Shown one piece after another: positions 14,806-63,695 of a stretch of 64,000 nt of DNA (positions are counted from its first letter, which is position 1; each line of letters begins with the position of its first letter). A model generated the notes under the pieces. That model saw only the letters and a program-made list of their open reading frames with translations, made no database searches and was not told the DNA's origin. Source of the DNA: Escherichia phage vB_EcoM-pEK20; the sequence record MZ868638.1; one strand, 5' to 3'. Made by a program: the position numbers and the translations under genes.

Positions 14806-14809
14806 ATCA

Positions 14810-14839: not shown

Positions 14840-14867
14840 CTTTCTATCTTAACGAGAGGAAAATATT

Positions 14868-15812
14868 ATGACACGTTCACATTACATTGATTATTTTGCA
14901 GGTCTTATCGCTAACGTTCATGCCCAACGTGCTTCTGGTTCATTAGGATTTGATGTTCCACACCGAGTTGTAGTAAGTGGTATTCTTCGCGATTTTGGTA
15001 CATACACAGGCCAAGAAAATCATATCTGTAAAGATACTCAGAATGCATATTCTCATTCATTAGGGACACTGCTTCAATGGTTCAAACGTTCTCGTTTATT
15101 ATCTTCTACTGTAGCTCGCGATAACATTAAAAACTTTATGAAGCCGAGCTTTATTAAATCTGTGACATCTAAAACCGATTTGGTTGAATTCACTATTGTT
15201 AATGATGTTAAAAAGACTCATTTGGCTGATTGGTTATCTACCATTCCTGAAACTAAATTTGCTGATAAATTTGCTTGTGAATTCAATAACCAAGTGAATA
15301 TGCTTTTTAAACATTCTCGTAAATTATTCACAGGCGGCGATGATCGTACAAATAAAGTTCATGTTAAAGATTGGGTTACTGCAGTATTCAAACCAACCGG
15401 TAATGGTAACGCATCATTATCAATTGATATCCAGGTTCCTTATTACTACTCACGTAATCTCGGTACCATGAAAGCCGAAGAAATTAATAAGCACAACAAA
15501 ACCATTCGTTCGCTGTCTTATAAACTTCGCATGATGTTAAGAATCATGGACGTGGTAGAAATGTATGATGAAACCGAAGATAATGGTTCAATGTTATACA
15601 GTTCTCGCATTCAAATTAAGTTGAAGAACCCTAACGAGTATAAGCCTATTAAAGAGCCTAAAGCAGAAAAAGTTGATAACTTAAGAGAAGAACGCGAATA
15701 TCTCAAATCTCGTCTGAAAGAAGTCGAAGCCCAGATTGCAGAACAAACTAAATCGTTAAAAGCTCTGAATGCGAAAGCGGATGGCTTACGAAATGCCATT
15801 GAGGTGTTATAA
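14868..15812 (+). CDS. Hypothetical protein with C-terminal coiled coil
   Basis: Same architecture as neighbours. Confidence 0.35.
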   Translation: MTRSHYIDYFAGLIANVHAQRASGSLGFDVPHRVVVSGILRDFGTYTGQENHICKDTQNAYSHSLGTLLQWFKRSRLLSSTVARDNIKNFMKPSFIKSVTSKTDLVEFTIVNDVKKTHLADWLSTIPETKFADKFACEFNNQVNMLFKHSRKLFTGGDDRTNKVHVKDWVTAVFKPTGNGNASLSIDIQVPYYYSRNLGTMKAEEINKHNKTIRSLSYKLRMMLRIMDVVEMYDETEDNGSMLYSSRIQIKLKNPNEYKPIKEPKAEKVDNLREEREYLKSRLKEVEAQIAEQTKSLKALNAKADGLRNAIEVL

Positions 15813-18081: not shown

Positions 18082-18555
18082 ATGTTATTATCAGGCGCAA
18101 AATATAAAGAAGAAAAACAAAAATTTTATGATGCACAGAACGGTAAGTGTCCTATTTGCCACCGTGAATTAGACCCTGATGTTCAAGGTAACCATCTTGA
18201 CCACGACCACGAATTAAACGGGCCAAAAGCCGGTAGAGTTCGTGGATTACTCTGTAATCTGTGCAACGCAGCAGAAGGTCAAATGAAGCATAAGTTCAAC
18301 CGTTCCGGTCTTAAAGGACGTGATGTCGACTACCTCGAATGGCTTGAAGCTCTTCTTGCTTATTTGAAACAAGATTATTCTGATAATAATATCCATCCTA
18401 ATTTTGTTCCAGACAAAACTAAAGAGTTCTCAAGACTAGGTAAAGAGGAAATGATGGCTGAGATGCTTCAAAGAGGATTTGAATATAATGAATCTGATAC
18501 CAAAACACAATTAATAGCTTCATTCAAAAAGCAGCTTAGAAAGAGTTTAAAATGA
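18082..18555 (+). CDS. 49: Endonuclease VII (Holliday junction resolvase)
   Basis: HLDHDHELNGPKAGRVRGLLCNLCN motif and length 157 aa match T4 gp49. Confidence 0.9.
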   Translation: MLLSGAKYKEEKQKFYDAQNGKCPICHRELDPDVQGNHLDHDHELNGPKAGRVRGLLCNLCNAAEGQMKHKFNRSGLKGRDVDYLEWLEALLAYLKQDYSDNNIHPNFVPDKTKEFSRLGKEEMMAEMLQRGFEYNESDTKTQLIASFKKQLRKSLK

Positions 18556-20369
18556 AAATTGAAAAAGAAATTGAAGGATTAATTCATAAAACTAATAAAG
18601 ATCTTTTGAACGAGAATGCTAATAAAGATTCTCGTGTTTTTCCAACTCAACGGGACCTTATGGCTGGTATTGTGTCTAAGCACATTGCCAAAAATATGGT
18701 CCCGTCTTTTATTATGAAAGCACATGAAAGCGGAATTGTCCATTTCCATGATATTGATTATTCCCCTGCTCTTCCATTTACTAATTGCTGTTTAGTAGAT
18801 TTAAAAGGAATGCTTGAAAACGGGTTTAAGCTAGGTAATGCTCAAATTGAAACGCCTAAATCGATTGGTGTTGCTACTGCAATTATGGCACAAATTACCG
18901 CACAGGTTGCTTCACATCAGTACGGCGGAACGACTTTTGCTAATGTAGATAAAGTACTTTCTCCTTATGTTAAACGCACCTATGCAAAACATATTGAGGA
19001 TGCAGAAAAATGGCAAATCGCTGATGCGTTGAATTATGCCCAATCTAAAACAGAAAAAGACGTATACGATGCATTTCAAGCTTATGAGTATGAAGTAAAT
19101 ACTCTTTTTAGCTCAAACGGTCAAACGCCTTTTGTAACAATTACATTTGGTACTGGAACTGACTGGACTGAACGAATTATTCAGAAAGCAATTCTTAAAA
19201 ACCGCATTAAAGGCCTTGGTCGTGATGGAATAACTCCTATTTTCCCTAAACTTGTTATGTTCATTGAAGAGGGTGTCAATCTTTATAAAGACGACCCGAA
19301 CTATGATATTAAGCAGCTTGCTCTAGAGTGTGCAAGCAAAAGAATGTATCCTGATATTATTTCAGCTAAGAACAATAAAGCTATCACTGGTTCATCTATT
19401 CCTGTTTCTCCAATGGGTTGTCGTAGTTTCTTGAGTGTATGGAAAGATTCGACTGGAAATGAAATTCTTGATGGACGTAATAATCTTGGTGTTGTAACAC
19501 TGAATCTTCCTCGTATTGCGTTAGATTCTTATATTGGAACACAATTCAATGAACAGAAATTTGTTGAGCTATTTAATGAACGAATGGATCTGTGTTTTGA
19601 AGCCTTGATGTGTAGAATTAGTTCTTTAAAGGGTGTTAAAGCAACAGTTGCTCCTATTCTTTACCAAGAAGGTGCATTTGGGGTTCGTCTTAAACCTGAT
19701 GATGATATAATTGAGCTATTTAAAAACGGTAGAAGTTCAGTGTCTTTAGGATACATTGGTATTCACGAATTGAATATTCTTGTCGGTCGTGATATTGGAC
19801 AGGAAATTTTGACTAAAATGAATGCTCGTCTTAAGCAGTGGACTGAAAGAACCGGTTTTGCTTTTAGCTTGTATTCTACTCCTGCTGAAAACCTGTGCTA
19901 TCGCTTCTGTAAACTTGATACTGAAAAATATGGAAGTGTAAAAGATGTTACTGATAAAGGCTGGTACACTAATAGTTTCCATGTTTCAGTAGAAGAAAAT
20001 ATCACTCCGTTTGAAAAGATTTCTCGCGAAGCCCCATATCATTTCATTGCGACTGGCGGACACATTTCTTATGTTGAACTTCCTGATATGAAAAATAACC
20101 TAAAAGGTCTTGAGGCTGTCTGGGATTATGCTGCGCAACATTTAGATTATTTTGGTGTTAATATGCCAGTAGATAAATGTTTTACGTGTGGAAGTACCCA
20201 TGAAATGACTCCTACCGAAAACGGATTTGTTTGTTCTATTTGTGGAGAAACTGATCCTAAAAAGATGAACACAATAAGAAGAACTTGTGGTTATCTTGGA
20301 AATCCTAACGAACGTGGATTTAATCTCGGCAAAAATAAAGAAATCATGCATAGGGTTAAACACCAATGA
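18552..20369 (+). CDS. nrdD: Anaerobic ribonucleoside-triphosphate reductase (glycyl radical enzyme)
   Basis: 605 aa, continuous ORF, C-terminal Zn/Cys motif and glycyl-radical region RRTCGY. Confidence 0.95.
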   Translation: MKIEKEIEGLIHKTNKDLLNENANKDSRVFPTQRDLMAGIVSKHIAKNMVPSFIMKAHESGIVHFHDIDYSPALPFTNCCLVDLKGMLENGFKLGNAQIETPKSIGVATAIMAQITAQVASHQYGGTTFANVDKVLSPYVKRTYAKHIEDAEKWQIADALNYAQSKTEKDVYDAFQAYEYEVNTLFSSNGQTPFVTITFGTGTDWTERIIQKAILKNRIKGLGRDGITPIFPKLVMFIEEGVNLYKDDPNYDIKQLALECASKRMYPDIISAKNNKAITGSSIPVSPMGCRSFLSVWKDSTGNEILDGRNNLGVVTLNLPRIALDSYIGTQFNEQKFVELFNERMDLCFEALMCRISSLKGVKATVAPILYQEGAFGVRLKPDDDIIELFKNGRSSVSLGYIGIHELNILVGRDIGQEILTKMNARLKQWTERTGFAFSLYSTPAENLCYRFCKLDTEKYGSVKDVTDKGWYTNSFHVSVEENITPFEKISREAPYHFIATGGHISYVELPDMKNNLKGLEAVWDYAAQHLDYFGVNMPVDKCFTCGSTHEMTPTENGFVCSICGETDPKKMNTIRRTCGYLGNPNERGFNLGKNKEIMHRVKHQ

Positions 20370-20836
20370 ATTATGATAGATTTTATCCTTGCGATTTTGT
20401 GAATGGCCCTGGTTGCAGGGTCGTTCTTTTCGTTACAGGTTGTTTGCATAAATGCGAAGGGTGTTATAATAAATCAACATGGAATGCTAGAAATGGTATT
20501 CCATTCACAGGTGAAACACTAGAGCAATTAATTGAATGTTTGAATAATGATTATATAGAAGGATTAACTATAACTGGAGGAGACCCTCTCTATCCCGATA
20601 ACAGAGATGTTGTTCATTGCATTGCTCAAACAGTAAAAAATCTTTATCCCAATAAAAGCATTTGGTTGTGGACAGGATATAAGTTTGAAGATATTAAACA
20701 ACTAGAAATGCTTAAATATGTTGATGTTATTATTGATGGGAAGTATGAGAAAAATCTTCCGACCAAAAAACTGTGGCGAGGATCAGATAATCAGCGACTT
20801 TGGTCAAATACCGATGGGGTGTGGAAACATGATTAA
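20366..20836 (+). CDS. nrdG: Anaerobic RNR activating enzyme (radical SAM)
   Basis: Cys motif CLHKCEGC; position after nrdD. Confidence 0.9.
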   Translation: MNYDRFYPCDFVNGPGCRVVLFVTGCLHKCEGCYNKSTWNARNGIPFTGETLEQLIECLNNDYIEGLTITGGDPLYPDNRDVVHCIAQTVKNLYPNKSIWLWTGYKFEDIKQLEMLKYVDVIIDGKYEKNLPTKKLWRGSDNQRLWSNTDGVWKHD

Positions 20837-33066: not shown

Positions 33067-35778
33067 ATGAAAGAATTTTACTTAACGGTTGAACAGATTG
33101 GTGATTCAATTTTTGAACGTTACATCGATTCTAACGGTCGTGAACGTACTCGTGAAGTAGAATATAAACCATCACTGTTTGCTCATTGTCCAGAAAGTCA
33201 GGCTACGAAATATTTCGATATCTACGGTAAGCCGTGTACTCGTAAGTTGTTCGCCAATATGCGTGATGCCTCCCAATGGATTAAACGCATGGAAGATATC
33301 GGACTTGAAGCACTTGGCATGGACGATTTCAAATTGGCGTATTTGTCCGACACTTATAACTATGAAATAAAATACGACCATACAAAAATTCGTGTGGCTA
33401 ACTTCGACATCGAAGTAACATCTCCAGATGGGTTCCCTGAGCCATCACAAGCAAAACATCCGATTGATGCTATCACTCATTATGACTCAATTGACGACAG
33501 GTTCTACGTATTTGACCTTTTGAATTCTCCATACGGTAATGTAGAAGAATGGTCTATCGAAATTGCGGCTAAGCTTCAAGAACAAGGTGGTGATGAAGTT
33601 CCATCCGAAATTATCGATAAAATCATTTATATGCCGTTTGATAACGAAAAAGAATTGTTGATGGAATATCTCAACTTCTGGCAACAGAAAACTCCTGTCA
33701 TTTTGACTGGATGGAACGTTGAGTCATTTGATATTCCATATGTGTATAACCGAATCAAGAATATTTTTGGCGAATCTACTGCGAAACGTTTATCACCACA
33801 TCGTAAAACTCGTGTTAAAGTTATCGAAAACATGTATGGTTCTCGTGAAATCATTACATTGTTCGGTATCTCTGTTCTTGATTACATTGACCTTTACAAA
33901 AAATTCTCTTTTACCAATCAACCATCATATTCTCTGGATTACATTTCAGAATTTGAATTGAACGTTGGTAAACTGAAATATGACGGCCCTATTTCTAAGC
34001 TTCGTGAAAGCAATCACCAACGATATATTTCTTATAACATTATCGACGTATATCGTGTATTGCAAATTGACGCTAAGCGTCAGTTCATCAACTTGAGTTT
34101 GGACATGGGTTATTATGCTAAGATACAGATTCAATCTGTGTTTAGCCCAATTAAAACATGGGATGCTATTATTTTTAATAGCCTTAAAGAGCAGAACAAG
34201 GTGATTCCACAAGGTCGTTCTCACCCGGTTCAACCTTATCCAGGCGCTTTTGTTAAGGAACCTATTCCAAATCGGTACAAATATGTAATGAGTTTCGACC
34301 TTACATCTCTGTATCCAAGTATTATTCGCCAAGTGAATATTAGCCCAGAAACAATAGCAGGAACGTTTAAAGTAGCTCCATTGCATGATTATATTAACGC
34401 TGTTGCTGAACGTCCTTCTGATGTGTACAGTTGTTCTCCTAACGGCATGATGTATTATAAAGACCGTGACGGTGTTGTTCCAACTGAAATCACTAAGGTC
34501 TTTAATCAACGTAAAGAACATAAAGGTTACATGCTTGCAGCTCAACGTAATGGTGAAATAATTAAAGAGGCATTGCATAATCCTAATCTTTCTGTTGACG
34601 AACCATTAGATGTTGATTATCGTTTCGACTTCAGTGATGAGATTAAAGAAAAGATTAAAAAGTTGTCTGCTAAATCTCTTAACGAAATGTTGTTTAGAGC
34701 TCAACGTACTGAAGTTGCAGGTATGACTGCCCAAATTAACCGTAAATTGCTTATCAACTCACTTTATGGTGCACTTGGCAACGTTTGGTTCCGTTATTAT
34801 GATTTGCGTAATGCTACTGCAATCACAACATTCGGGCAAATGGCTTTACAGTGGATTGAACGTAAAGTTAATGAATATTTGAATGAAGTTTGTGGCACAG
34901 AAGGTGAAGCTTTCGTTCTTTATGGTGATACAGACTCTATTTACGTATCTGCTGATAAAATTATCGATAAGGTTGGTGAATCTAAATTCCGTGATACCAA
35001 CCATTGGGTAGACTTCTTAGATAAGTTTGCACGTGAACGTATGGAACCAGCTATTGATAGAGGTTTCCGTGAAATGTGTGAATACATGAACAATAAACAA
35101 CACTTAATGTTCATGGACCGAGAAGCTATCGCTGGGCCTCCACTCGGTTCTAAAGGTATTGGTGGATTCTGGACTGGTAAGAAACGTTATGCATTAAACG
35201 TGTGGGATATGGAAGGTACTCGTTACGCTGAGCCTAAACTCAAAATCATGGGTCTAGAGACTCAGAAATCTTCGACTCCTAAAGCAGTACAGAAAGCTCT
35301 TAAAGAATGTATTCGTCGTATGCTTCAAGAAGGTGAAGAATCATTACAAGAATATTTTAAAGAGTTTGAAAAAGAATTCCGTCAATTGAATTATATTAGC
35401 ATCGCGTCGGTATCTTCTGCGAATAACATTGCTAAATATGATGTAGGTGGATTCCCTGGTCCCAAATGCCCGTTCCATATTCGTGGAATTCTGACGTATA
35501 ACCGGGCTATCAAAGGTAATATCGATGCACCACAAGTTGTAGAAGGTGAAAAAGTATATGTTCTGCCTTTACGTGAAGGAAACCCATTCGGTGATAAATG
35601 TATCGCATGGCCTTCTGGTACTGAAATCACAGATTTAATTAAAGACGATGTACTTCATTGGATGGACTACACTGTTCTCCTTGAGAAGACATTTATTAAA
35701 CCACTTGAAGGATTCACATCAGCAGCGAAACTCGATTACGAGAAGAAAGCATCTCTGTTCGATATGTTCGATTTTTGA
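33067..35778 (+). CDS. 43: DNA polymerase (family B)
   Basis: 903 aa; matches RB69 gp43 (MKEFYLTVEQIGDSIFERYIDSNGRERTREVEYKPSLFAHCPESQATKYFDIYGKPC...) as recalled; motifs DIE exonuclease, YGDTDS. Confidence 0.97.
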   Translation: MKEFYLTVEQIGDSIFERYIDSNGRERTREVEYKPSLFAHCPESQATKYFDIYGKPCTRKLFANMRDASQWIKRMEDIGLEALGMDDFKLAYLSDTYNYEIKYDHTKIRVANFDIEVTSPDGFPEPSQAKHPIDAITHYDSIDDRFYVFDLLNSPYGNVEEWSIEIAAKLQEQGGDEVPSEIIDKIIYMPFDNEKELLMEYLNFWQQKTPVILTGWNVESFDIPYVYNRIKNIFGESTAKRLSPHRKTRVKVIENMYGSREIITLFGISVLDYIDLYKKFSFTNQPSYSLDYISEFELNVGKLKYDGPISKLRESNHQRYISYNIIDVYRVLQIDAKRQFINLSLDMGYYAKIQIQSVFSPIKTWDAIIFNSLKEQNKVIPQGRSHPVQPYPGAFVKEPIPNRYKYVMSFDLTSLYPSIIRQVNISPETIAGTFKVAPLHDYINAVAERPSDVYSCSPNGMMYYKDRDGVVPTEITKVFNQRKEHKGYMLAAQRNGEIIKEALHNPNLSVDEPLDVDYRFDFSDEIKEKIKKLSAKSLNEMLFRAQRTEVAGMTAQINRKLLINSLYGALGNVWFRYYDLRNATAITTFGQMALQWIERKVNEYLNEVCGTEGEAFVLYGDTDSIYVSADKIIDKVGESKFRDTNHWVDFLDKFARERMEPAIDRGFREMCEYMNNKQHLMFMDREAIAGPPLGSKGIGGFWTGKKRYALNVWDMEGTRYAEPKLKIMGLETQKSSTPKAVQKALKECIRRMLQEGEESLQEYFKEFEKEFRQLNYISIASVSSANNIAKYDVGGFPGPKCPFHIRGILTYNRAIKGNIDAPQVVEGEKVYVLPLREGNPFGDKCIAWPSGTEITDLIKDDVLHWMDYTVLLEKTFIKPLEGFTSAAKLDYEKKASLFDMFDF

Positions 35779-35818: not shown

Positions 35819-36454
35819 ATGAAAACTACTCCTATTACTATCGCTATTGACGCAATCATAAAACAAGCTTCTTCTTTGGCCGCTATGGCCAAAGTAATTA
35901 GTCAAAACCCTGCTCGTTATAATGCTATTCTAGAAACTCTTCGACGCCCGGGACTTAGTAATTATGAAAGTCGTGTAATTATTACAGGTGTGGGTAAGAA
36001 TGCTAATATTGCAACTAAAGCTTCTGAGACATTTGCTTCACTTGGTATCCCGAGTATGTACTTGAACACCGGGCATTATTCTCACGGTGATGCAGGATTC
36101 ATTGCGCCTAATGATGTGTTGATTCATATTAGTCGTTCTGGTAAAACTGAAGAAATGATAGGCGTGGCTAAGCATCTTAAAATGATTCGTCCGAACGTCA
36201 AACAGATTCTGTTGCATTGTAACCCAGACATTCCACAAGAAAATGAAGCCCTTTTTGATTACTCTTTCTGTACAGGCATCGCAGTAGAGGTTGATGAGAA
36301 TTCTCTGGCTCCGACTATGTCCACTACATTGTTGTTAGCGCTTATCGATACGTTTGCTATCAACCTTTCGTCTGAACGTGGATTTACCTCTAATGACTTC
36401 CTTAAGTTCCACCCTGGCGGTGCACTAGGTGCCATGTTACGAGGCGAACAATGA
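35819..36454 (+). CDS. SIS-domain sugar-phosphate isomerase, KdsD/GutQ-like (D-arabinose-5-phosphate isomerase family)
   Basis: GVGKNANIATKASETFASLGIPS...HGDAGF...HISRSGKTEE...LAPTMSTT...RGFTSNDFLKFHPGGALG parallels the E. coli KdsD SIS domain motif for motif. Confidence 0.75.
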   Translation: MKTTPITIAIDAIIKQASSLAAMAKVISQNPARYNAILETLRRPGLSNYESRVIITGVGKNANIATKASETFASLGIPSMYLNTGHYSHGDAGFIAPNDVLIHISRSGKTEEMIGVAKHLKMIRPNVKQILLHCNPDIPQENEALFDYSFCTGIAVEVDENSLAPTMSTTLLLALIDTFAINLSSERGFTSNDFLKFHPGGALGAMLRGEQ

Positions 36455-36635
36455 AAGCAATAACAATAGGACTTTTACTATTGATGCTTGTCATGACTAT
36501 CTACTGGAGCTTAACGGCTCCAGTAATGATTCCGACTCTTATAATCGGATGGATTATGATTGGACTACAAGCAAAGTATGAATGCTTTAACTAGAATAGT
36601 GTACAATACTCCTACTTACCAATGAGGACCACAAC

Positions 36636-38324
36636 ATGAAAAAAGCTGTTATTCTTGGTGCTGGACTGGCAACTCGTTTGTATCCAATAACGCATCATAT
36701 TCCTAAGGTGCTTGTTAACTATAAACAAGACACTATTCTGAGCAATTTGTATACAATTTATTCTGACCTTGGCGCAGATGAAATTATTGTAGTAGTTCAT
36801 TCAAAATTTGCTGAAACTGTTCGAGCTTATTGTGAGCAAGAAGGGTTCAATGTGACTATTCGTACAGTTGATGAAGCGTATGGTTCCGCTTATGCTCTTG
36901 CTAAATTACACAAAGATTTAGACGGCCATAATGTAATTGTTAACTGGTGTGATATTATTCCCGATTTTGGTTCATGGTCTTGGAATGTTAACGCAATCTA
37001 TGTTAAGGGCGACGAATGTCGTTATAATTTCGACGGTGAAAATATCACTAACGTAGGTTCAACAGGTGGTAATGTTGTAGGAATTTATCAGTTCAAAGAC
37101 TGGGAATTCTATATGGGTTCTACTGATGAGGAAATTCATGAATACTGCAAAGGACGTGATTTCGTAGAATTCCTTTACGGCAGCGCATTCAATAAATCAG
37201 AGCTTATGAATATCATCGACCTTGGTGATATGCCTAAACTTGAAAAAGCTCATGAAGTTCGTGAACTTAATCGTAGTTTTAATGCAGTTGAAATTGGCGA
37301 AGAAACGGTAACAAAGATTGCTTTAACAGAACAGGGCGTTGCACTTCAAAAAGATGAAGTCAATTGGTATAAGAAAGTTAAATCAGATTCAGTTCCACGG
37401 ATTGTAAGTTATCATCCTGGCGGCCACTTTATTATGGAACGCATTAAAGGTAAGCCAGCATTTGAATATATTAAATCCAAATCGAGTCTTGCTCGTCCAC
37501 AAATTGTTGATGCAATTTTAGACGCACTGAAATTCAGCACAGACACTTATTTTGTAAGTCCTGAAACTGTTCGTCGTGATTTCACTAAAGAATTCTATAC
37601 GAAAGTTATTGATCGTTGTGAAAGTATTCAACCATTGATTGATTCATTTGGTAAAATCACACATGTGAACTACACTAAGATTGGGCGTCTGAAGCCAATG
37701 CTGAAACAAGCTTTAGAACACCTTATTCGTTATCATAACCGTTCTCAGGGACAGTACTCTGTTATTCATGGTGACCCGAACTTCAGTAATACTATGATTA
37801 CTGATAATGGTGAAGTCAAGTTTATCGACCCTCGTGGATATTTTGGTGAAACCAAGATTTATGGGCCAAAATTGTATGATGAAGCTAAAGTGCTTTATGC
37901 TGTTTCAGGTTATGATGAATTCAACGCTAATCCGACCTGGGGTCAGTTTACTATTGATGAAACAACTTGTAATGTGACTATTAACATCAATCCATTAGTT
38001 TACAAATATGGAAAGATGAGTTCGTTTAATGAGTATCATCATTTGGCTGTAGCAATTATCTGGATTGCATTAGGTGGTTATTTCAAGAATAATCCACTTA
38101 AAGCGGTAGCCGCATATTATAAAGGTATGGAACTTCTGACTAAGCAATTACGTAACATGGGCCGTGTACTTCAGGACGGCACTATTAGTTATGATGTAGC
38201 AGAACCTGTAACGGCTACTCTGATTACAAAAAATCCTGGTAAATGGGTACTAACTGATAAAGAAACTGGTGTTTCTTATCGTCCAATCGGTGGCGATATC
38301 ACTCATCAATGGGAACGAATCTAA
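36636..38324 (+). CDS. Bifunctional sugar-1-phosphate nucleotidyltransferase (N-term) / APH-like sugar kinase (C-term)
   Basis: N-term KAVILGAGLATRLYPIT...PKVL is the GxGTRLxPxT nucleotidyltransferase signature; C-term IHGDPNFSNTMI plus KFIDPRGYFG is the HGDxxxxN / D-x-G catalytic pair of APH/choline-kinase-fold kinases. Confidence 0.7.
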   Translation: MKKAVILGAGLATRLYPITHHIPKVLVNYKQDTILSNLYTIYSDLGADEIIVVVHSKFAETVRAYCEQEGFNVTIRTVDEAYGSAYALAKLHKDLDGHNVIVNWCDIIPDFGSWSWNVNAIYVKGDECRYNFDGENITNVGSTGGNVVGIYQFKDWEFYMGSTDEEIHEYCKGRDFVEFLYGSAFNKSELMNIIDLGDMPKLEKAHEVRELNRSFNAVEIGEETVTKIALTEQGVALQKDEVNWYKKVKSDSVPRIVSYHPGGHFIMERIKGKPAFEYIKSKSSLARPQIVDAILDALKFSTDTYFVSPETVRRDFTKEFYTKVIDRCESIQPLIDSFGKITHVNYTKIGRLKPMLKQALEHLIRYHNRSQGQYSVIHGDPNFSNTMITDNGEVKFIDPRGYFGETKIYGPKLYDEAKVLYAVSGYDEFNANPTWGQFTIDETTCNVTININPLVYKYGKMSSFNEYHHLAVAIIWIALGGYFKNNPLKAVAAYYKGMELLTKQLRNMGRVLQDGTISYDVAEPVTATLITKNPGKWVLTDKETGVSYRPIGGDITHQWERI

Positions 38325-38710
38325 TGCACCGTGTAGAAAACATGCTTAATCTTTGTTTTGATGTCGATGATTGTATAACAGAGTGGAATAACAACCGTGA
38401 TTACGTGAACTTCAAACCAGACGTCGAAATGGTGACTGCCATTAATGCCCTGTACGATGCAGGGCATACCATAACGCTTTACACTGCTCGCGGTATGAAG
38501 TCAGTCGGTCCTGGTCGTATAGCAATTGACATTCTCCCAAGTCTGATTCAGAACTTGGCAAACATTGGATTGAAGTACCATAATTTGCTAACACATAAAC
38601 CAGTATATGATTGGATTATCGACGACAAAGCTATGCGTCCTGACGAATTCAAAGCTCTTATGAATAAAGGCGAATTCGAAACATTTAAATCGTATAAACC
38701 GAATCTATAA
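38324..38710 (+). CDS. HAD-superfamily phosphatase, KdsC-like
   Basis: FDVDDCIT (KdsC FDVDGVLT), TLYTAR, IIDDKAM (motif IV DD); start 38324 overlaps upstream stop, alternative 38309. Confidence 0.6.
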   Translation: MHRVENMLNLCFDVDDCITEWNNNRDYVNFKPDVEMVTAINALYDAGHTITLYTARGMKSVGPGRIAIDILPSLIQNLANIGLKYHNLLTHKPVYDWIIDDKAMRPDEFKALMNKGEFETFKSYKPNL

Positions 38711-38766
38711 TAATTTAAGTAAGACCTGCAAAAACCATCGCGTCAATTAACGTGAGATGCAAAAAA

Positions 38767-39927
38767 ATGAATACTTTTAAAATCGGAACGAATTTTGATT
38801 TAGCTCTTCTTGATAAAATCGTAGAGCTCAATAAAACTTATCCTAATAGCTTGATAAACGAAGTATACGGCTCTACAAGAGAAATGGCTTTTGTAGCAGC
38901 CAGACCTGATTTTAGGCTTCCTGACGTTGACAAAAAGATGTTAGAAGATTACGTTAAACGTTGTAACGAATTAGGTATTTGCTTTAACTATACACTCAAC
39001 ACGATAAATCCTGGTTCAAAAAGAGAACTAGTTGAGTGGAAGAAGAAAGCTATTCAGGATTATGTTCAGTATCTTTGGTCAATAGGCGTATGGCGTATTA
39101 CTATCGCTAACCCTGTTGTTATGGAAATTGTTCGTGAAGTCAATAAAGACATTGAGATTGAAGTTTCAACAATTCTACATGTCGATGCTGTAACTCAAAT
39201 CAAATACTTGCATGACCAGTATAATATCAAAAAGGTCTGCTGTGGAATTCATAAGAACCGTTCGGTTTCTTTCCTGAAGCGTGCAGCAGAGTTTTGCAAT
39301 AAGAACAATATAATATTTGAAGTTCTTGTAAATGAGTTCTGTTCTAATGCTGGTAAAGGGTATACAACACATTGTAGCTATCGTGACTCTTGCTATATTT
39401 TCCATAGTACTGATGTTACCGCTGATGATGCTAAATCCTTAAATGGATATCCAATGCAACACTGCATTAAAGCTCGTGATACAGATCCATTTAACTGGTT
39501 GAGAACTCGTTTTGTTCGTCCTCAAGATTTGAAACTTTATAATGATATTGGTATCACTCAATTCAAAGTTTCAGGACGTACAGGTAGCACAGACTACATT
39601 TTGAAAGTTCTTGAAGCTTATGCTTCCGAAAAATTTGAAGGTAATTTGTTGGAATTGTGGAAGCCTTTAGAGACCATTTTCACTCTTGAAAATGAGACCG
39701 AGTTTTCACATACGGTAAATATTGAAACCTCTTTGTTAGATGGCTTTTTAGAAAAAAGGTGGTTCAGACATCCAGATTTCGATTGTGCTAATGAAATCTG
39801 TGGGACGACGTGTACATATTGTGAAAGATATTATAAACGTCAATTATCTAAAAATGGGTTATCAGAAAACTCTATATCTATTATTGATATAACTAACTCT
39901 GACGACGCTTTGAGGTACCCAGAATGA
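38767..39927 (+). CDS. Cys-rich enzyme of unknown family (possible Fe-S/metal-binding)
   Basis: Central Cys cluster KVCCGIH...EFCNKNN...EFCSNAGKGYTTHCSYRDSCY and C-terminal CANEICGTTCTYCERYY; fold not assignable by eye. Confidence 0.4.
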   Translation: MNTFKIGTNFDLALLDKIVELNKTYPNSLINEVYGSTREMAFVAARPDFRLPDVDKKMLEDYVKRCNELGICFNYTLNTINPGSKRELVEWKKKAIQDYVQYLWSIGVWRITIANPVVMEIVREVNKDIEIEVSTILHVDAVTQIKYLHDQYNIKKVCCGIHKNRSVSFLKRAAEFCNKNNIIFEVLVNEFCSNAGKGYTTHCSYRDSCYIFHSTDVTADDAKSLNGYPMQHCIKARDTDPFNWLRTRFVRPQDLKLYNDIGITQFKVSGRTGSTDYILKVLEAYASEKFEGNLLELWKPLETIFTLENETEFSHTVNIETSLLDGFLEKRWFRHPDFDCANEICGTTCTYCERYYKRQLSKNGLSENSISIIDITNSDDALRYPE

Positions 39928-40206
39928 TTTCTAGAAAAACTTTTAACCACCAACTTAATGAAGAGATTTTGACTATGAAAATTAACAGCAACGAACAAAT
40001 TCTTAAAAAGGCCCTTATGGGCCTGTTTGAAACCAAAGCGGCTTAAAGTGATTAAAGAACCTGTTCAATTGTAATACTACGCTGATGCATTTCTTCATAG
40101 TGTCCTTGGAAGTATCGATGCCGAAGCTCTACGTTATATCAACATCGCTAAGAAATTCAAATAAGCTTTATGAATTGAGTATATAATAAATTGTATTGAG
40201 GTAAAC

Positions 40207-40923
40207 ATGGGAAAACATAACACAATGAAATATATTAAAGCCGCAGATTTTCAATCCGCATTTAAAGCTGTCAATCGTGAAATTTTAGAAAACCCGGAAT
40301 TCGTAACTGATTCTCGTATTGGACGTTGTAATGAAATTGGGTCTATGACAGTAGTTGTTGACACTCCATCATCATTCAAAATGACCGACCCACGTATTAA
40401 CCGCATCTCTTATGAATATGCTGAAGACTTCTGGAAGTTTATGGTTTCTGGTGGTACTGATGCAGAAGAAGCATTTAAGGCATATCCTAACGTTGCTAAA
40501 TTTATTTCTAAACCTAAATCAGACGCTTTGCCTGCAAACTTCAACACTTTCTACGGTCCACGAATTGCGGCCCAATTACCAGCTCTTTTAAAAGAACTTA
40601 AAGAGAAGCCTAACTCTCGAAGAGTTGTGTTTCAAATTCTTGAAAGTTCTGATCAGGCTTTGCTTGATTCGGACGAAACGCTTGAATATCCATGTACTGA
40701 CTCAGTGACTTATTATATTCGTGATGGTAAGCTTTATACCCACTGCCATATGCGTTCTCAGAACTGTGCTGTTGTTATGCAGTTGGATTTTTATCTCCAA
40801 GGAAAATTACTTCATTATATCGCTAACGAATGTGGTGTAGAAGTTGGTGATTATACTCATACCATGGTAAGTGCCCATGTGTTTGAACGTGATTTTGATT
40901 ATGTTAAAGGATTCCTTGACTAA
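40207..40923 (+). CDS. 42: Thymidylate-synthase-fold pyrimidine hydroxymethylase (gp42-like, divergent)
   Basis: KPNSRRVVFQIL (TS NPxSRR), YPCTDSV (nucleophile PC), MRSQNCAVVMQLD (TS RSxD...N/D specificity position is Asp); position equals T4 gene 42. Confidence 0.65.
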   Translation: MGKHNTMKYIKAADFQSAFKAVNREILENPEFVTDSRIGRCNEIGSMTVVVDTPSSFKMTDPRINRISYEYAEDFWKFMVSGGTDAEEAFKAYPNVAKFISKPKSDALPANFNTFYGPRIAAQLPALLKELKEKPNSRRVVFQILESSDQALLDSDETLEYPCTDSVTYYIRDGKLYTHCHMRSQNCAVVMQLDFYLQGKLLHYIANECGVEVGDYTHTMVSAHVFERDFDYVKGFLD

Positions 40924-41822
40924 TGGCTATTTTCCGCGTACCTATCTTGAGTATGCGGTCTTATGAAACTGGACAGTATGCTATCCTTAAGGATGGCAAC
41001 TTCCAACTTCATTTGCACCGTGCTAATCCAGGTGATGTGATTACATATCCACGTAATGCATCTGATATTAAAGAATGTGAACGTCTTTTCCCAGAATTTA
41101 AGTTTGTTCCATTATGGTATAAAGATAACGCGTATAACACTCGTAAATATTTCTGGTCTGAAAATGAATTTGTGGTTGATTCATTAATTGCTTATTATGA
41201 TTGTGATTTTCTAATAACAGATATCACTGGATATGATGGTGCTTTTGATGTAGAATTCAATTTCAATATCACCGCAGACCCTAATAAACCGCGTTTTTAT
41301 ATTGACGAATTCTTAAAAACCGACATGTTGTCGGTTAATCGTTCACTTCAAACTACTGTGTTGAATGAACGTCAAAAGGAAGTGCTGGTTAACGCTGGTG
41401 CGGATGGTAATAAGATTATCGTAACGCAGAAAGTTATACGTCCTTCCATCATGCAGCGTCTTGTAGGTGATTTGGCTCCTATTCATCTAGATGGTATTTT
41501 TCATCCATTTCGAATTAGTGACCCGTGCTATCGTTTTGAACAAGTGGTTGAATGTGCAATTCAATTAGGCCAACCGCTTTATATAACCGATCCAAATAAT
41601 AGCTTCGACAGAAATAAGTATCCTGAAGAAGCGCTGATTCGAATTTTTAAACCAACTAAAACCGAGTACTATCAAATTCTTAAAGGACGTCCAAAGATTC
41701 AATATTTCGAAAATCCTGAAGAAGTATTCCATCCAGGTCTTGGTGAGTTCATCTACTTTAATGCTTTAATTTCTTCGCCGTATAATATACCTAAATACGA
41801 AGATGTCGTAATCGAGGAATAA
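40923..41822 (+). CDS. Hypothetical protein at the T4 beta-gt position
   Basis: 299 aa; no motif I can assign. Confidence 0.35.
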   Translation: MAIFRVPILSMRSYETGQYAILKDGNFQLHLHRANPGDVITYPRNASDIKECERLFPEFKFVPLWYKDNAYNTRKYFWSENEFVVDSLIAYYDCDFLITDITGYDGAFDVEFNFNITADPNKPRFYIDEFLKTDMLSVNRSLQTTVLNERQKEVLVNAGADGNKIIVTQKVIRPSIMQRLVGDLAPIHLDGIFHPFRISDPCYRFEQVVECAIQLGQPLYITDPNNSFDRNKYPEEALIRIFKPTKTEYYQILKGRPKIQYFENPEEVFHPGLGEFIYFNALISSPYNIPKYEDVVIEE

Positions 41823-41823
41823 A

Positions 41824-42372
41824 ATGGCTAAAATTATTTTAGTAGATGGCCCGGATAATGCTGGTAAAACAACTTTCATTAATGACATAATGGAAATTAG
41901 TGAAAGATATGTAAAGATTGATTTCCCTAAACGAACGGTTGATGGACGTTTCGATGTTAAGTCTCGAAATGAAGTTGGCTGTTTCGAAACGATGCTGAAT
42001 TATTTAGACCCTACTAAGATTTATCTGTTAGATCGTGGATATATTAGTAACTGGGTTTACGGACGTATTCGACAAGATGCGGACTCGGTTCTTGACGTTT
42101 ATGAACAGGATTATGTTCGTCTTTGCCAAAACCATGATGTGTTCACAATTATTTTAACACGTAACGAAATGACTGAAAGTTTTGAAGACGACCTTATTAC
42201 TTTGTCTTCATTCGGTTTTAATACAGTAATTTCATATTTTGAAGAGTTTGCAATCCATAACGAAATCCAAACGTATCAATTACTTAATCATGATGGTGCT
42301 AACAAAGTTATAGGATTTAATGCAAGCGAACGTAATAATTTGATTACAGAAATTATCAAATGGGCTCGTTAA
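41824..42372 (+). CDS. Tmk-like P-loop nucleoside monophosphate kinase
   Basis: IILVDGPDNAGKTT Walker A and LLDRGYISNWVYG resemble thymidylate kinase DRY motif region. Confidence 0.45.
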   Translation: MAKIILVDGPDNAGKTTFINDIMEISERYVKIDFPKRTVDGRFDVKSRNEVGCFETMLNYLDPTKIYLLDRGYISNWVYGRIRQDADSVLDVYEQDYVRLCQNHDVFTIILTRNEMTESFEDDLITLSSFGFNTVISYFEEFAIHNEIQTYQLLNHDGANKVIGFNASERNNLITEIIKWAR

Positions 42373-42471: not shown

Positions 42472-43644
42472 ATGTCTGATTTAAAATCTCGTCTGATTAA
42501 AGCTTCTACTTCTAAAATGACTGCAGACTTGACTAAGTCTAAGTTGTTTAATAATCGCGATGAAGTCCCTACTCGTATTCCGATGTTGAATATTGCATTA
42601 GGTGGTGCACTGAATGCTGGGTTGCAATCAGGCTTAACTATTTTTGCTGCTCCTTCTAAACACTTTAAAACGTTGTTTGGACTGACCATGGTTGCAGCAT
42701 ATATGAAGAAATATAAAGATGCAATTTGTTTGTTCTATGATTCAGAATTTGGTGCTTCAGAATCTTATTTTCGTTCGATGGGTGTTGATTTAGACCGTGT
42801 AGTTCATACTCCGATTCAATCTGTCGAACAACTTAAAGTTGATATGACTAATCAGCTTGACGCGATTGAACGCGGTGATAAAGTTATTATCTTTATCGAT
42901 TCAATTGGTAATACTGCATCTAAGAAAGAAACCGAAGATGCGTTGAACGAGAAAGTTGTAGGTGATATGTCTCGTGCTAAGGCACTTAAATCTCTGTTCC
43001 GCATTGTGACTCCTTATCTGACTATTAAAGATATTCCGTGTGTTGCAATCAACCATACAGCAATGGAAATTGGCGGACTATATCCTAAAGAGATTATGGG
43101 TGGTGGTACAGGTATTCTTTACTCTGCTAACACTGTATTCTTTATCTCTAAACGTCAGGTTAAAGAAGGTACAGAATTGACCGGTTATGACTTCACGTTG
43201 AAAGCAGAAAAATCTCGTACAGTTAAAGAGAAATCTACTTTCCCAATCACAGTCAATTTCGATGGCGGTATCGACCCATTCAGTGGCTTGTTAGAAATGG
43301 CAACTGAAATTGGTTTTGTAGTTAAGCCTAAAGCCGGGTGGTATGCTCGAGAATTCCTTGACGAAGAAACAGGCGAAATGATTCGTGAAGAGAAATCATG
43401 GCGTGCTAAAGCTACTGATTGTGTAGAATTCTGGGGACCGTTGTTTAAACACAAACCTTTCCGAGATGCAATTGAAACTAAATATAAACTAGGTGCTATC
43501 TCTTCTATTAAAGAAGTCGATGACGCTGTTAACGACCTTATTAATTGCAAAGCAACAACTAAAGTTCCGGTTAAAACTTCTGATGCTCCGTCTGCAGCAG
43601 ATATAGAAAACGACCTTGACGAAATGGAAGATTTCGATGAATAA
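42472..43644 (+). CDS. uvsX: RecA-like recombinase UvsX
   Basis: 390 aa; RecA core motifs, matches T4 UvsX. Confidence 0.9.
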   Translation: MSDLKSRLIKASTSKMTADLTKSKLFNNRDEVPTRIPMLNIALGGALNAGLQSGLTIFAAPSKHFKTLFGLTMVAAYMKKYKDAICLFYDSEFGASESYFRSMGVDLDRVVHTPIQSVEQLKVDMTNQLDAIERGDKVIIFIDSIGNTASKKETEDALNEKVVGDMSRAKALKSLFRIVTPYLTIKDIPCVAINHTAMEIGGLYPKEIMGGGTGILYSANTVFFISKRQVKEGTELTGYDFTLKAEKSRTVKEKSTFPITVNFDGGIDPFSGLLEMATEIGFVVKPKAGWYAREFLDEETGEMIREEKSWRAKATDCVEFWGPLFKHKPFRDAIETKYKLGAISSIKEVDDAVNDLINCKATTKVPVKTSDAPSAADIENDLDEMEDFDE

Positions 43645-47158: not shown

Positions 47159-47407
47159 ATGGAATTATTCGTAGCTAGTTCAGTAGCAGTTTTAATCGCA
47201 GGTATTGGTTCAATCATCATTTACATGTTGCCTTGGGTAATCGCACTTATTCGTGGCACAAAAAGCACAACAGCAATCTTCTTTGTATCTTTACTCTTTA
47301 ACTGGACGATGATTGGTTGGATTGGAACTTTAATTTGGTCTATCGTTGCCGAAAAGAAATCTGCTCAGCAGCCTCAACAAGTAATTATTATTCGCGAAAA
47401 AGAATAA
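47159..47407 (+). CDS. Small two-TM membrane protein, Imm-like (superinfection immunity candidate)
   Basis: Two hydrophobic helices, adjacent to sp. Confidence 0.35.
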   Translation: MELFVASSVAVLIAGIGSIIIYMLPWVIALIRGTKSTTAIFFVSLLFNWTMIGWIGTLIWSIVAEKKSAQQPQQVIIIREKE

Positions 47408-50447: not shown

Positions 50448-50969
50448 ATGGCACACTTTAACGAATGTTCACAACTTATTTCTGGTGTTGATAAAGCAGA
50501 AGAAGCTTATTTTAATGCTCTGATTCACGAAGATAAAGACCCTCTGCAGGTAATGCTTGATATGCAGAAATCTTTACAGGTTCGTCTGGCAAATGACAAG
50601 CCTGAACATAACAAACATCCTGATGAATTGGCCACTGCTGGTGATGTTGTTGATTGGCTGCGTAATCAGAAAGATTATATTGATGATGAATTCCGTGAAC
50701 TGTTGACTTCACTTGGTGGTATGAGCAATGGTGAAAAAGCCGCTAGCTCTGTATGGAAGCCGTGGAAAGCACAACATGCTGAATATCGAAATCGTCGTAT
50801 CGATGAACTGTCTCCTGAAGACCAGCTTGAAATTAAATTTGAAATGATTGATATTCTGCATTTCGTTCTAAATATGTTCCAAGGTCTAGGACTTTCTGCT
50901 GAAGAAATCTTCAAACTGTATTACCTGAAAAACCAACACAACTTTGAACGCCAGGATAATGGTTACTAA
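50448..50969 (+). CDS. 56: dCTPase / dCTP pyrophosphatase gp56 (MazG-like)
   Basis: MAHFNECSQLISGVDK...DPLQVMLDMQ...SPEDQLEIKFEMID matches T4 gp56 as recalled. Confidence 0.85.
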   Translation: MAHFNECSQLISGVDKAEEAYFNALIHEDKDPLQVMLDMQKSLQVRLANDKPEHNKHPDELATAGDVVDWLRNQKDYIDDEFRELLTSLGGMSNGEKAASSVWKPWKAQHAEYRNRRIDELSPEDQLEIKFEMIDILHFVLNMFQGLGLSAEEIFKLYYLKNQHNFERQDNGY

Positions 50970-62594: not shown

Positions 62595-63695
62595 ATGAAA
62601 GTTATGTTTATCCCATCTCGTGCAGTCCCATTTAATCCTGACCGTGTACAAGGTGGTCTTGAAGCAGTACATTTAAATGTGTTGAAATATCTTGTGTCCA
62701 TCGGTGCTGATATTGATTATATCGGCTTTGATAATGACACGTTTGGTGACTGGAAAGTTACACACCATCCTGTTGGTCATCTGACTAAATTTAGTCTAGG
62801 TATGAGTTATACTATGGCTCGTAAGATTGTTGAACTAGCCGGCATCCATGAATACGATTTTGTTGTTACTATGGAACCGACTAAACTAACCGTTCAGGCA
62901 ATTAAAGACGCAGGTCTCTCTAAAGTTCATAAGAATTTTATGGCAACACCATTTGAACCGGTATCTCGTGGCATTGTTCAAATTTGGGACCAGACTATTC
63001 AAATTCATAAGAATGGTGGTAAGAGTTATGCTCCTACTAAAGCCTTCCGTGAATTTGAACGCAAATATTGTTATATGACTTCAGGTCTGACTGACAAAAT
63101 TGATTATGATTATTGGCGAGCAAATCCGTTGTTTGAAGCCGAAGATTATCCGGTTATTTGTTTGAATGAGAAACCTGAAGTTCTTCCGGCGACTGATCTG
63201 ATTATTAGTGCACAACGTTATGACACTAAAATGCGTCGTACTGATGTTGCTCTTGAAGCGATTAAAGCACTAGGCGAAAATGGTGTAGGATACTGTCCAA
63301 GCAAATGGGCACCACCAGCTAAATATCCTGTTATTATTGATGCTCCACACAGTGAAATCATGGAACGTCTTAAAACAGCTAAAGCGCTTATTAATACGTG
63401 TCCTGACACAGGTACGGTAGAGAATAGTTCTATTGAAGCCATCTCTAAAGGTGTCCCTGTAATCCAGTTAGTTTTTAAGGATTATCCTCATGCGACATTC
63501 GAATACGACCCAGATACTGTGCGTGTAGAAATTGATTCCTCTACTCCTAAGAAAGAAGTAGTTGCGCTTTACACAAAAGCTGTATTAGAATTCACTGACA
63601 CATACGAAGCTCGAGTTAAACGTGCTGAAGCAGTATGGAAGAAGTATAACCGAGATGCAGTTGTTGCGATGTGGGATAAAATCTTCACAGCGTAA
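62595..63695 (+). CDS. GT-B fold glycosyltransferase (candidate hydroxymethyl-cytosine sugar transferase)
   Basis: N-terminal Rossmann-like beta-strand/Gly loop and E-x7-E-like region SIEAISKGVPVI; sits between gene 39 and rIIA.1. Confidence 0.55.
   Translation: MKVMFIPSRAVPFNPDRVQGGLEAVHLNVLKYLVSIGADIDYIGFDNDTFGDWKVTHHPVGHLTKFSLGMSYTMARKIVELAGIHEYDFVVTMEPTKLTVQAIKDAGLSKVHKNFMATPFEPVSRGIVQIWDQTIQIHKNGGKSYAPTKAFREFERKYCYMTSGLTDKIDYDYWRANPLFEAEDYPVICLNEKPEVLPATDLIISAQRYDTKMRRTDVALEAIKALGENGVGYCPSKWAPPAKYPVIIDAPHSEIMERLKTAKALINTCPDTGTVENSSIEAISKGVPVIQLVFKDYPHATFEYDPDTVRVEIDSSTPKKEVVALYTKAVLEFTDTYEARVKRAEAVWKKYNRDAVVAMWDKIFTA

Follow-up and report, generated by a model that had tools for sequence, protein, structure and literature searches.

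A Peptidase_U32-family protein in the arabinosyl-5-hydroxycytosine island of an RB69-type phage as a possible oxygen-independent DNA-precursor hydroxylase

The DNA analyzed here is a stretch of 64,000 nt from Escherichia phage vB_EcoM-pEK20 (MZ868638.1; hereafter the window), and the locus of interest is an island at 35819–42372 with seven + strand open reading frames (ORFs), flanked by the genes for a family-B DNA polymerase (33067–35778) and uvsX (42472–43644). An earlier reading made from the letters alone (the sequence-only reading) had described seven consecutive + strand genes between polymerase and uvsX, and all were found where it placed them. The island very probably represents the core of the published Afh system for arabinosyl-5-hydroxycytosine, with arms for the base and for the sugar donor, and with a Peptidase_U32-family protein (hereafter U32) inferred to be a second hydroxylase. 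Because this system has already been published, finding it here adds little as such. The only element that is possibly new is the prephenate-dependent reading of U32, and the rest of the island is known. For U32, the evidence tips slightly toward an O2-independent, prephenate-dependent hydroxylase that would act on C5 of a cytosine deoxynucleotide. A wider proposal, which we regard as evenly balanced, is that U32 is a DNA-precursor hydroxylase that yields 5-hydroxy-dCMP (5hodCMP) or a related product. Enterobacterial T4-like phages would then have paired aerobic and anaerobic routes, and many others would have U32 alone, alongside glycosyltransferases and Tmk-like kinases of the same families, some with an imported 3-deoxy-D-arabino-heptulosonate-7-phosphate (DAHP) synthase or chorismate mutase.

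The window derives from an RB69-type Mosigvirus. In megablast searches, the island was found at 97–98% DNA identity in >150 Mosigvirus genomes, among them HY126 (98.3%) and RB69 (97.1%). The profile searches proposed in the sequence-only reading were run and placed island proteins in the Pfam families SIS (1e-10), NTP_transferase (9.6e-10), Peptidase_U32 (7.5e-11), and Thymidylat_synt (2.4e-15), while PHROG matches of the island genes ranged from 1e-43 to 1e-294. These family matches are far beyond chance, and the island genes are real coding genes. Compared with the Afh system of RB69, HY126, Bas46/47, LC53, and DLP3, the window has the same genes in the same order (97–98% DNA identity), together with gp56, and no substantive difference was noted. 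Three features of the Afh type are present: a hydroxylase of the thymidylate synthase (TS) fold with the D169N/N177D signature (HMRSQNCAVVMQLDF), a donor module for UDP-arabinofuranose (UDP-Araf) that was recognized by homology and domain layout (isomerase, kinase/uridylyltransferase, and HAD phosphatase), and transferases of the GT-B type, one recognized from a structural model and the other from its match to PDB 9iqz/9ir0. Work by Mahler from 2025 is said to be among the studies of this system.

Arabinose on RB69 DNA was found by Thomas et al. (2018; PMC6024577) and reported as arabinosyl-hydroxymethylcytosine (ara-hmC). That study described an eight-gene module between gene 43 and uvsX, named ORF055c (SIS) and the fusion protein ORF53_52c as candidates for UDP-arabinose synthesis, and also nominated a second transferase of the ORF003c type. 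By nuclear magnetic resonance (NMR) and mass spectrometry (MS), Lee et al. (2026; PMC13326640) found complete replacement of C in RB69 by mono- and di-arabinofuranosyl 5-hydroxycytosine (5hoC), in which the sugar is held by an ether bond, and a separate third group called the ara-hmC assignment erroneous. Arabinosyl-5-hydroxy-dC in virion DNA has been demonstrated for RB69 and Mosigvirus NP (PMC13326640 and the third group). The sequence-only reading had mentioned arabinosyl-hmC as reported for RB69-type phages, which agrees with the arabinose reported in 2018 but not with the base, since corrected to 5hoC. It had also taken the pathway genes to be uncharacterized, which was mistaken, as ORF055c and ORF53_52c were nominated in 2018 and later characterized.

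The steps of the base arm are known from published work on near-identical proteins. In this arm, gp56 would convert dCTP to dCMP and so exclude dCTP, and the TS-fold enzyme would hydroxylate dCMP at C5 with O2 and flavin. A gp1-type kinase, encoded outside the window, and host enzymes would then produce 5hodCTP for incorporation by the polymerase. The dCTPase gp56 is encoded in the window, as the sequence-only reading held (Table 1). The TS-fold protein shares 235 of its 238 residues with PDB 9iqc/9ir2 (2.5e-162) and is also near identical to 9iqu. The signature RSQN...LDF, corresponding to D169N/N177D in E. coli ThyA numbering as defined in PMC13326640, is kept in all orthologues; the ThyA-169 position in the window protein is Asn (RSQN) and not the Asp of the gp42 type. 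For its RB69 counterpart gp48, conversion of dCMP to 5hodCMP with incorporation of 18O from O2 and with bound flavin mononucleotide (FMN) has been reported, and gp48 alone is enough for aerobic hydroxylation in E. coli (PMC13326640). By these residues, the TS-fold protein is identified as a flavin/O2-dependent dCMP 5-hydroxylase and not as a hydroxymethylase.

The sequence-only reading had instead taken this protein for a gp42-like hydroxymethylase and the island for the donor-supply arm of a sugar-hmC system. Although that scheme could draw on TS-fold homology and on the 2018 report of ara-hmC, we give it almost no weight. The ether-linked 5hoC established by NMR and MS, together with 18O2 incorporation and flavin binding (PMC13326640), contradicts it, as do the D169N substitution in the window protein, which differs from 9iqc at only three of 238 positions, and the transferase encoded in the island. 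The published nucleoside structures, in which arabinose is attached to 5-hydroxycytosine and not to hmC, have already refuted it. The island is also more than a donor-supply arm, since it encodes a base-hydroxylating enzyme and a transferase, and a second transferase gene lies elsewhere in the window.

The parallel donor arm, likewise known from near-identical proteins, would begin with the SIS isomerase, which converts ribulose-5-phosphate to arabinofuranose-5-phosphate (Araf5P). The kinase domain of the fusion protein would then add an anomeric phosphate, the HAD phosphatase would strip the 5-phosphate, and the nucleotidyltransferase domain would form UDP-Araf. The first reaction has been assigned to the isomerase (PMC13326640, with He et al. 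as relayed there). According to the account of He et al. (2026) given in PMC13326640, the donor route was reconstituted for HY126: the kinase domain of AfhE converts Araf5P to Araf1,5P2, AfhF (HAD) removes the 5-phosphate to give Araf1P, and the N-terminal domain of AfhE converts Araf1P to UDP-Araf. The proposal that the isomerase, fusion protein, and phosphatase form an NDP-arabinose donor route is thus borne out by homology and by the pathway in PMC13326640, although it was already known from previous publications. As to the order of steps, dephosphorylation before the anomeric kinase had been the first choice, and the published order has the kinase first; the alternative that was offered, with kinase before phosphatase as in the GmhA/HldE/GmhB route, matches the published account as far as it is relayed there.

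The domain matches agree with these assignments. The SIS protein is KpsF/GutQ/KdsD-like without the CBS pair, with NCBIfam matches to kpsF (2e-32) and KdsD (7e-31), both under the equivalog cut-offs, and PDB matches to 3etn (2.6e-25) and the arabinose-5-phosphate isomerase 2xhz (3.5e-19). In the AfhE-type protein, the NTP_transferase match covers residues 3–99, with further matches to PHROG 4098 (3.6e-294) and PDB 1jyk (1.9e-5); residues 238–410 have sub-threshold Pfam matches to APH, Fructosamin_kin, and EcKL (4e-3 to 7e-3). The HAD protein is nearly identical to PDB 9iqw (4.4e-87), also matches 1xpj (6e-10) and the capsule biosynthesis phosphatase family TIGR01689 (NCBIfam, 4.6e-13), and contains FDVDDC as its DxD motif. 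In three Enterobacter/Karamvirus-type loci (L015, L016, and L027), the AfhE orthologue has about 660 aa compared with 562 aa here, and no separate SIS ORF was called although SIS-like sequence is present. These orthologues may be SIS-AfhE fusions, resembling proteins that Thomas et al. (2018; PMC6024577) described from Butyrivibrio.

According to a published proposal, arabinose would be transferred to the 5-OH first by the 299-aa protein (GT299) and then by the second transferase, which gives one and then two arabinoses. GT299, listed as an unknown in the sequence-only reading, has no match in Pfam or among PDB sequences. Its AlphaFold2 (AF2) model (pLDDT 93.9) has a GT-B fold, and Foldseek matched it to MshA 3c4q (TMq 0.61), tll1591 8x3q (0.60), 6kih (sucrose-phosphate synthase), and the HY126 glycosyltransferase 9ir0. 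The role of first (base-proximal) arabinosyltransferase was proposed for its counterpart in PMC13326640, which left undecided whether the first arabosylation occurs at the nucleotide or the DNA level. The second transferase shares 99% identity with RB69 ORF003c (tblastn) and matches PDB 9iqz/9ir0, the HY126 glycosyltransferase solved with UDP, at 4.7e-251.

The last gene of the island encodes a Tmk-like kinase, which matches the thymidylate kinase family PHROG 761 (5e-45); its Pfam and NCBIfam matches are weak, and a phmmer search against PDB sequences gave none. In the proposed mechanism, it is placed in the base and transferase arm. It co-occurs with the TS-fold 5-hydroxylase and GT299 in loci where SIS, AfhE, and HAD are absent (L088–L092); in PolIII-alpha phages, its partners are U32 and GT299. 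Judging from this gene company, the kinase belongs with the hydroxylase and glycosyltransferase and not with the sugar genes. The L088–L092 loci come from IMG/VR and combine a TS-fold 5-hydroxylase, a GT299-family protein, and the Tmk-like kinase without SIS, AfhE, or HAD; their phages probably attach a host-supplied sugar to 5hoC.

The island works like two known pathways and is a member of neither. It occupies the same slot as the hmC-glucose genes of T4 (gp56, gp42, gp1, alpha-gt, and beta-gt) and follows the same logic, which leads from a dCTPase through a TS-fold enzyme for dCMP and a kinase to incorporation by the polymerase and sugar transfer. However, T4 uses folate-dependent hydroxymethylation and host UDP-glucose, whereas the island uses O2/flavin-dependent hydroxylation with an ether at C5, and its phage makes its own UDP-Araf. 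The transferases are unrelated in sequence to those of T4, and U32 is an additional gene. The claim that alpha-gt and beta-gt homologues are missing at the T4 positions stands in that no such sequence match was found, and the RB69 annotation has neither gene (only the flanking a-gt.2 to a-gt.5); it falls short in that a GT-B transferase occupies the beta-gt slot. With the ADP-heptose pathway (GmhA/HldE/GmhB), the island shares the order of reactions: a SIS isomerase comes first, then an anomeric kinase, a HAD phosphatase that removes the distal phosphate, and a nucleotidyltransferase, with kinase and transferase fused. Unlike that pathway, its SIS protein scores as KpsF/KdsD/GutQ-type and not GmhA (NCBIfam), its kinase is APH-like and not PfkB-like as in HldE, the transferase is N-terminal in the fusion (the reverse of HldE), and a pentose serves as substrate with UDP as its carrier.

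The protein that the sequence-only reading described as a Cys-rich enzyme is a Peptidase_U32 member (Pfam 42.2 bits compared with a cut-off of 22.4). Its sole NCBIfam match is UbiU (9e-4), and phmmer found no match among PDB sequences; PDB structures exist for three or four of the other island proteins of HY126, whereas U32 has none by sequence. The AF2 model is a TIM barrel (pLDDT 90.4), for which the top PDB fold match is 5d88, the only solved U32 protein. Among 36 aligned homologues, 10 Cys, some of them candidate Fe-S ligands, are invariant, including C197, C238, and the C-terminal C345/C350/C354/C357 (Cx4CGx2Cx2C). When the U32 profile was compared with the four E. coli paralogues RlhA, TrhP, UbiU, and UbiV by hhalign, RlhA scored best (E = 2e-5, 205 columns), followed by TrhP (4e-3) and UbiU (7e-3), with no match for UbiV. 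By manual residue count, E161, C169, and C176 of the RlhA U32 motif align with E195, C208, and C214 of the phage protein, all invariant in the 36 homologues, and E161 and both motif Cys are important or essential in RlhA (Kimura et al.). An extra conserved C-terminal Cys cluster is present in phage U32 as in RlhA. However, phage U32, with 386 aa compared with 653 aa in RlhA, has no counterpart of the large C-terminal extension of the latter. It belongs to a compact subfamily (360–390 aa; 1185 representatives at E<=1e-3) that is very distant from RlhA, TrhP, and UbiUV and has no NCBIfam equivalog. U32 is the best-conserved island protein, with 82–89% identity across genera compared with 73–82% for the TS-fold protein, 59–89% for HAD, 57–74% for SIS, 46–72% for the glycosyltransferase, 42–73% for AfhE, and 36–73% for the Tmk-like kinase. 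A protease function, as in the labels "peptidase" and "collagenase-like," was rejected, as this is a legacy family name and the characterized members described in PMC10990095 and by Kimura et al. are hydroxylation factors.

These relatives share the U32 domain and the motif Glu and Cys with the phage protein, and include RlhA (ho5C2501 of 23S rRNA), TrhP (ho5U34 of tRNA), and UbiU/UbiV (anaerobic ubiquinone synthesis). They have been described as Fe-S proteins (PMC10990095; Kimura et al.) and their reactions as O2-independent (PMC10990095). RlhA depends on prephenate, which in the case of UbiU/V has been shown to donate the oxygen (PMC10990095; Kimura et al.). The hydroxylation of cytosine C5 by RlhA is the chemistry that the island needs. 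In the mechanism that we favor, U32 would be a second, O2-independent hydroxylase with [4Fe-4S] clusters, taking its oxygen from prephenate as is thought for RlhA, TrhP, and UbiUV. Under anaerobic conditions, as in the gut, this enzyme would yield the 5-hydroxypyrimidine nucleotide that is otherwise formed with O2, and would feed the same kinase, polymerase, and transferase steps. Such a pairing of U32 with the TS-fold enzyme would parallel the paired aerobic and anaerobic ribonucleotide reductases of the phage. No published role for the phage protein, and no link between U32, RlhA, TrhP, or prephenate and phage DNA modification was found in the accessible literature, a scope outside which He et al. 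(2026) and Mahler et al. (2025) fall. The Discussion of PMC13326640 points out that the RNA hydroxylation routes of RlhA and TrhP use no TS-fold homologues and does not mention the kinship of gp50 to these proteins.

Genes for prephenate supply are found near phage U32. Serratia phage LC53 has a chorismate mutase gene (Pfam 44.6 bits, cut-off 27) between those for U32 and the TS-fold protein, and tblastn found this enzyme in 54 phage records, all from U32-bearing genera. Among 27 T4-like loci that were anchored on the TS-fold gene, 13 of the 15 with U32 have a chorismate mutase gene in this position, compared with none of the 12 without (Fisher p = 6e-6, a statistic that ignores kinship among the loci). 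DAHP synthase or a fusion of DAHP synthase and chorismate mutase flanks U32 in seven unrelated phage loci of several lineages (L026, L038, L040, L041, L042, L051, and L098). Most U32-bearing T4-like genera other than Mosigvirus would use their own chorismate mutase. In the window, the corresponding slot holds a 40-aa ORF, in which one additional T compared with RB69 gives an early stop, as in HY126. This ORF and its RB69 counterpart ORF049c were tried as decayed chorismate mutases and rejected, as a hidden Markov model (HMM) built from phage and fusion chorismate mutase domains scored them at about 0–1 bit. With no chorismate mutase in the slot, Mosigviruses would depend on host PheA/TyrA for prephenate.

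Among the 27 T4-like loci, U32 is always inside the modification island, and 221 matches in the phage database, all >=80% identical, have neighbor annotations consistent with this position; no diverged copy was found elsewhere in the phage database records. Homologues with 37–58% identity occur in many unrelated phage contigs. In a scan of IMG/VR, AfhE-like genes were found in 16 and SIS genes in 9 of 32 distant U32 loci. Profile HMMs were also applied to 33 distant loci in which a U32 ORF was called, including the metagenomic contigs L006 and L007. GT299-family genes were found in 15 of these 33 loci (directly adjoining U32 in five) and Tmk-like kinase genes in seven. No TS gene of the 5hodCMP synthase type was found within 10 kb of U32 in any of the 33, and the sole TS homologue (L028) keeps D169 and N177. 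The gene order in L042 is Tmk-like kinase, SIS, AfhE, DAHP synthase-chorismate mutase fusion, HAD, and U32, and in a PolIII-alpha phage family of about 50 kb it is Tmk-like kinase, radical SAM, GT299-family, U32, and polymerase. In L099, U32 is flanked by a GT299-family protein on one side and a TAGT-like transferase on the other, next to dUTPase/DCD and UDP-galactopyranose mutase genes. Considered with L088–L092, the U32 loci point to a recurrent unit in which a GT299-family transferase and a Tmk-like kinase accompany a hydroxylase, be it the TS-fold enzyme, U32, or both. These neighborhoods of deoxynucleotide and glycosyltransferase genes differ from those of RlhA, TrhP, and UbiUV.

Two of these distant loci have further features of their own. 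L099 (Logan SRR33454321_1371, 61 kb, 5777–14179) also encodes Gly_transf_sug and a Tmk-like kinase with no TS-fold enzyme in view, and is a candidate for a galactofuranosyl-5-hydroxypyrimidine DNA system. In L007 (ENA ERZ28598223 scaffold_150, 86 kb, 8001–15428), two U32 paralogues are found among genes for NT5C, a PnuC-like transporter, a deoxynucleoside kinase (dNK), a radical SAM/SPASM protein, and a nucleoside 2-deoxyribosyltransferase. A dockerin/GH43 protein nearby makes a bacterial, Clostridia-like origin of this contig probable, and the locus looks like an island for modification or salvage at the deoxynucleoside level.

Alternatively, U32 may belong to the sugar arm and alter or recycle a pentose intermediate, which we consider distinctly unlikely. 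We know of no sugar-acting U32 member. The position of U32 between the HAD phosphatase and the hydroxylase fits such a role, as does its company of AfhE-like and SIS genes in roughly half the distant phage loci, and existing labels point the same way ("sugar or heterocycle reductase" in PMC13326640 and "putative enzyme involved in UDP-arabinose biosynthesis" in the BASEL phages). However, U32 is missing from the Acinetobacter phages DLP3 and Maestro, which carry the cluster or the same Araf modification, and the conversion of Araf5P to UDP-Araf is ascribed to AfhE and AfhF alone, with only the isomerase upstream, in the account relayed by PMC13326640; U32 is thus not needed for the arabinose chemistry. 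A sugar role also leaves the linkage to chorismate mutase and DAHP synthase unaccounted for, and U32 is found without SIS or AfhE beside genes for glycosyltransferases, Tmk-like kinases, dCMP deaminase, dNK, or NT5C. The same neighbors bear on the level at which a hydroxylase would act. A U32 enzyme that hydroxylates C in the polymer, converting residual C in replicated phage DNA to 5hoC for full replacement, is unlikely in our view, although RlhA, the nearest E. coli paralogue by profile, works on a polymer, replacement of C is complete, and the stage of the first arabosylation was left undecided (PMC13326640). The missing RlhA C-terminal extension and the monomer-level neighbors (dCMP deaminase, Tmk-like kinase, dNK, NT5C, and dUTPase/DCD) argue for a monomer as the favored substrate of U32, and gp56 already clears dCTP from the pool.

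It may also be that U32 is a TrhP/RlhA-like RNA hydroxylase of phage or host tRNA or rRNA that came to lie in the island by chance. T4-like phages encode tRNAs. Both nucleic-acid U32 substrates described are RNAs (PMC10990095; Kimura et al.), but the invariable position of U32 inside the modification island, the neighbors of the DNA glycosyltransferase type in unrelated phages (one of them TAGT-like), the lack of a diverged copy in other phage database records, and the missing RNA-binding extension make this explanation very improbable.

Several observations count against a prephenate-dependent hydroxylase, in addition to the kinship among loci noted above. No chorismate mutase is encoded in the window, where the slot holds a shortened, unrelated ORF. 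No TS-fold gene was recovered elsewhere on the U32-only contigs in a search with two narrow peptide patterns only, so that the evidence for the absence of this enzyme otherwise covers 10 kb around U32. The Dhakaviruses of E. coli have the island without U32, which is therefore not obligatory for phages of facultative anaerobes. Lee et al. (PMC13326640) listed gp50 as a "sugar or heterocycle reductase" without discussion, and direct hydroxylase activity has so far not been reconstituted for any U32 enzyme (PMC10990095).

Aerobic hydroxylation can proceed without U32, since gp48 is sufficient on its own in E. coli, and a condition-specific role remains for U32. Acinetobacter phages have the remaining island but neither U32 nor chorismate mutase. 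Acinetobacter is strictly aerobic. The window encodes NrdD (18552–20366), NrdG (20366–20833), and a GrcA-like protein (2798–3157), a set of oxygen-sensitive tools which implies that the phage regularly replicates without oxygen. Both the Acinetobacter absence and this toolkit fit an anaerobic route. In counts of NrdD by genus, Acinetobacter is outside the top ten genera, although summary counts cannot show absence. The correlation of U32 with host aerobiosis is suggestive, not clean.

Table 1. Features of the island and of related genes in the window.
Feature	Coordinates	Strand	ORF length as found	Basis
SIS-domain D-arabinose-5-phosphate isomerase (RB69 gp55)	35819..36454	+	211 aa	Pfam, NCBIfam, and PDB matches; role from PMC13326640
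Hydrophobic ORF, RB69 ORF054c slot	36451..36594	+	47 aa	Translation MKAITIGLLLLMLVMTIYWSLTAPVMIPTLIIGWIMIGLQAKYECFN; annotated in HY126 and RB69
Bifunctional AfhE-type nucleotidyltransferase/APH-like kinase	36636..38324	+	562 aa	Pfam, PHROG 4098, PDB; activities of HY126 orthologue
AfhF-type HAD phosphatase	38324..38710 (maximal ORF from 38309)	+	133 aa (38309..38710)	PDB 9iqw, TIGR01689, DxD motif
Peptidase_U32-family putative Fe-S protein (RB69 gp50)	38767..39927 (maximal ORF from GTG 38752)	+	391 aa (38752..39927)	Pfam, AF2 fold, hhalign
ORF in chorismate mutase slot of relatives	39924..40046	+	40 aa	Shortened counterpart of RB69 ORF049c (79 aa; L002 5723..5962)
TS-fold flavin/O2-dependent dCMP 5-hydroxylase (5hodCMP synthase, RB69 gp48)	40207..40923	+	238 aa	PDB 9iqc/9ir2, signature residues
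GT-B-fold glycosyltransferase (GT299, RB69 gp46:47)	40923..41822	+	299 aa	AF2 model and Foldseek
Thymidylate-kinase-like P-loop nucleotide kinase (RB69 gp45)	41824..42372	+	182 aa	PHROG 761
gp56 dCTPase	50448..50966	+		tblastn with RB69 gp56, 97% identity/173 aa
Second arabinosyltransferase (RB69 ORF003c/gp3 type), between topoisomerase gene 39 and rIIA.1	62595..63692	+		tblastn, PDB 9iqz/9ir0

Two gene starts probably differ from those of the maximal ORFs: the HAD gene would start at 38324, in an ATGA overlap as annotated in HY126, and the U32 gene at the in-frame ATG 38767, the same start as in its homologues. Single-base errors are known to split ORF52/53 and ORF46/47 in the RB69 reference; both frames are intact in the window, and ORF049c is shortened, as in HY126. 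The two small ORFs are additional to the earlier list of seven genes. The hydrophobic 47-aa ORF overlaps the SIS stop codon and perhaps encodes a small membrane protein of the island, and the gap between SIS and AfhE is also filled by an ORF of 46–51 aa in Serratia, Pectobacterium, Yersinia, and Edwardsiella phages. The imm gene is retained at 47159–47404, about 5 kb downstream of uvsX and not next to gene 43, which suggests that the imm-42-beta-gt slot of T4 was rebuilt and not merely filled. In LC53, a NUMOD3 homing endonuclease (a 212-aa ORF, L003 4352–4990) lies between HAD and U32, and ORFs of equal size are present in this gap in L016, L020, L022, and L024; the island is a target of mobile endonucleases. 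A scan of the island for promoters and terminators found no excess over shuffled sequences (22 compared with 26.5 and 5 compared with 3.7, respectively).

The only demonstrated route to 5hoC needs O2, the phage destroys dCTP, and its habitat is the gut; there could thus be no anaerobic replication without a second route. If the reading of U32 is correct, a prephenate-dependent hydroxylase would solve this problem, and it would be the first U32 enzyme in DNA metabolism. The shikimate-pathway genes of phages would be explained, and hydroxylase, GT299-family transferase, and Tmk-like kinase would form a conserved triad with non-orthologous displacement of the hydroxylase. Phage U32 would also provide a soluble enzyme with a small substrate for reconstitution in vitro, which is still lacking for the family (PMC10990095). 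Finally, the combination of U32, GT299-family, and Tmk-like genes would be a marker by which DNA with glycosylated 5-hydroxypyrimidines could be found in uncultured phages that infect anaerobes.

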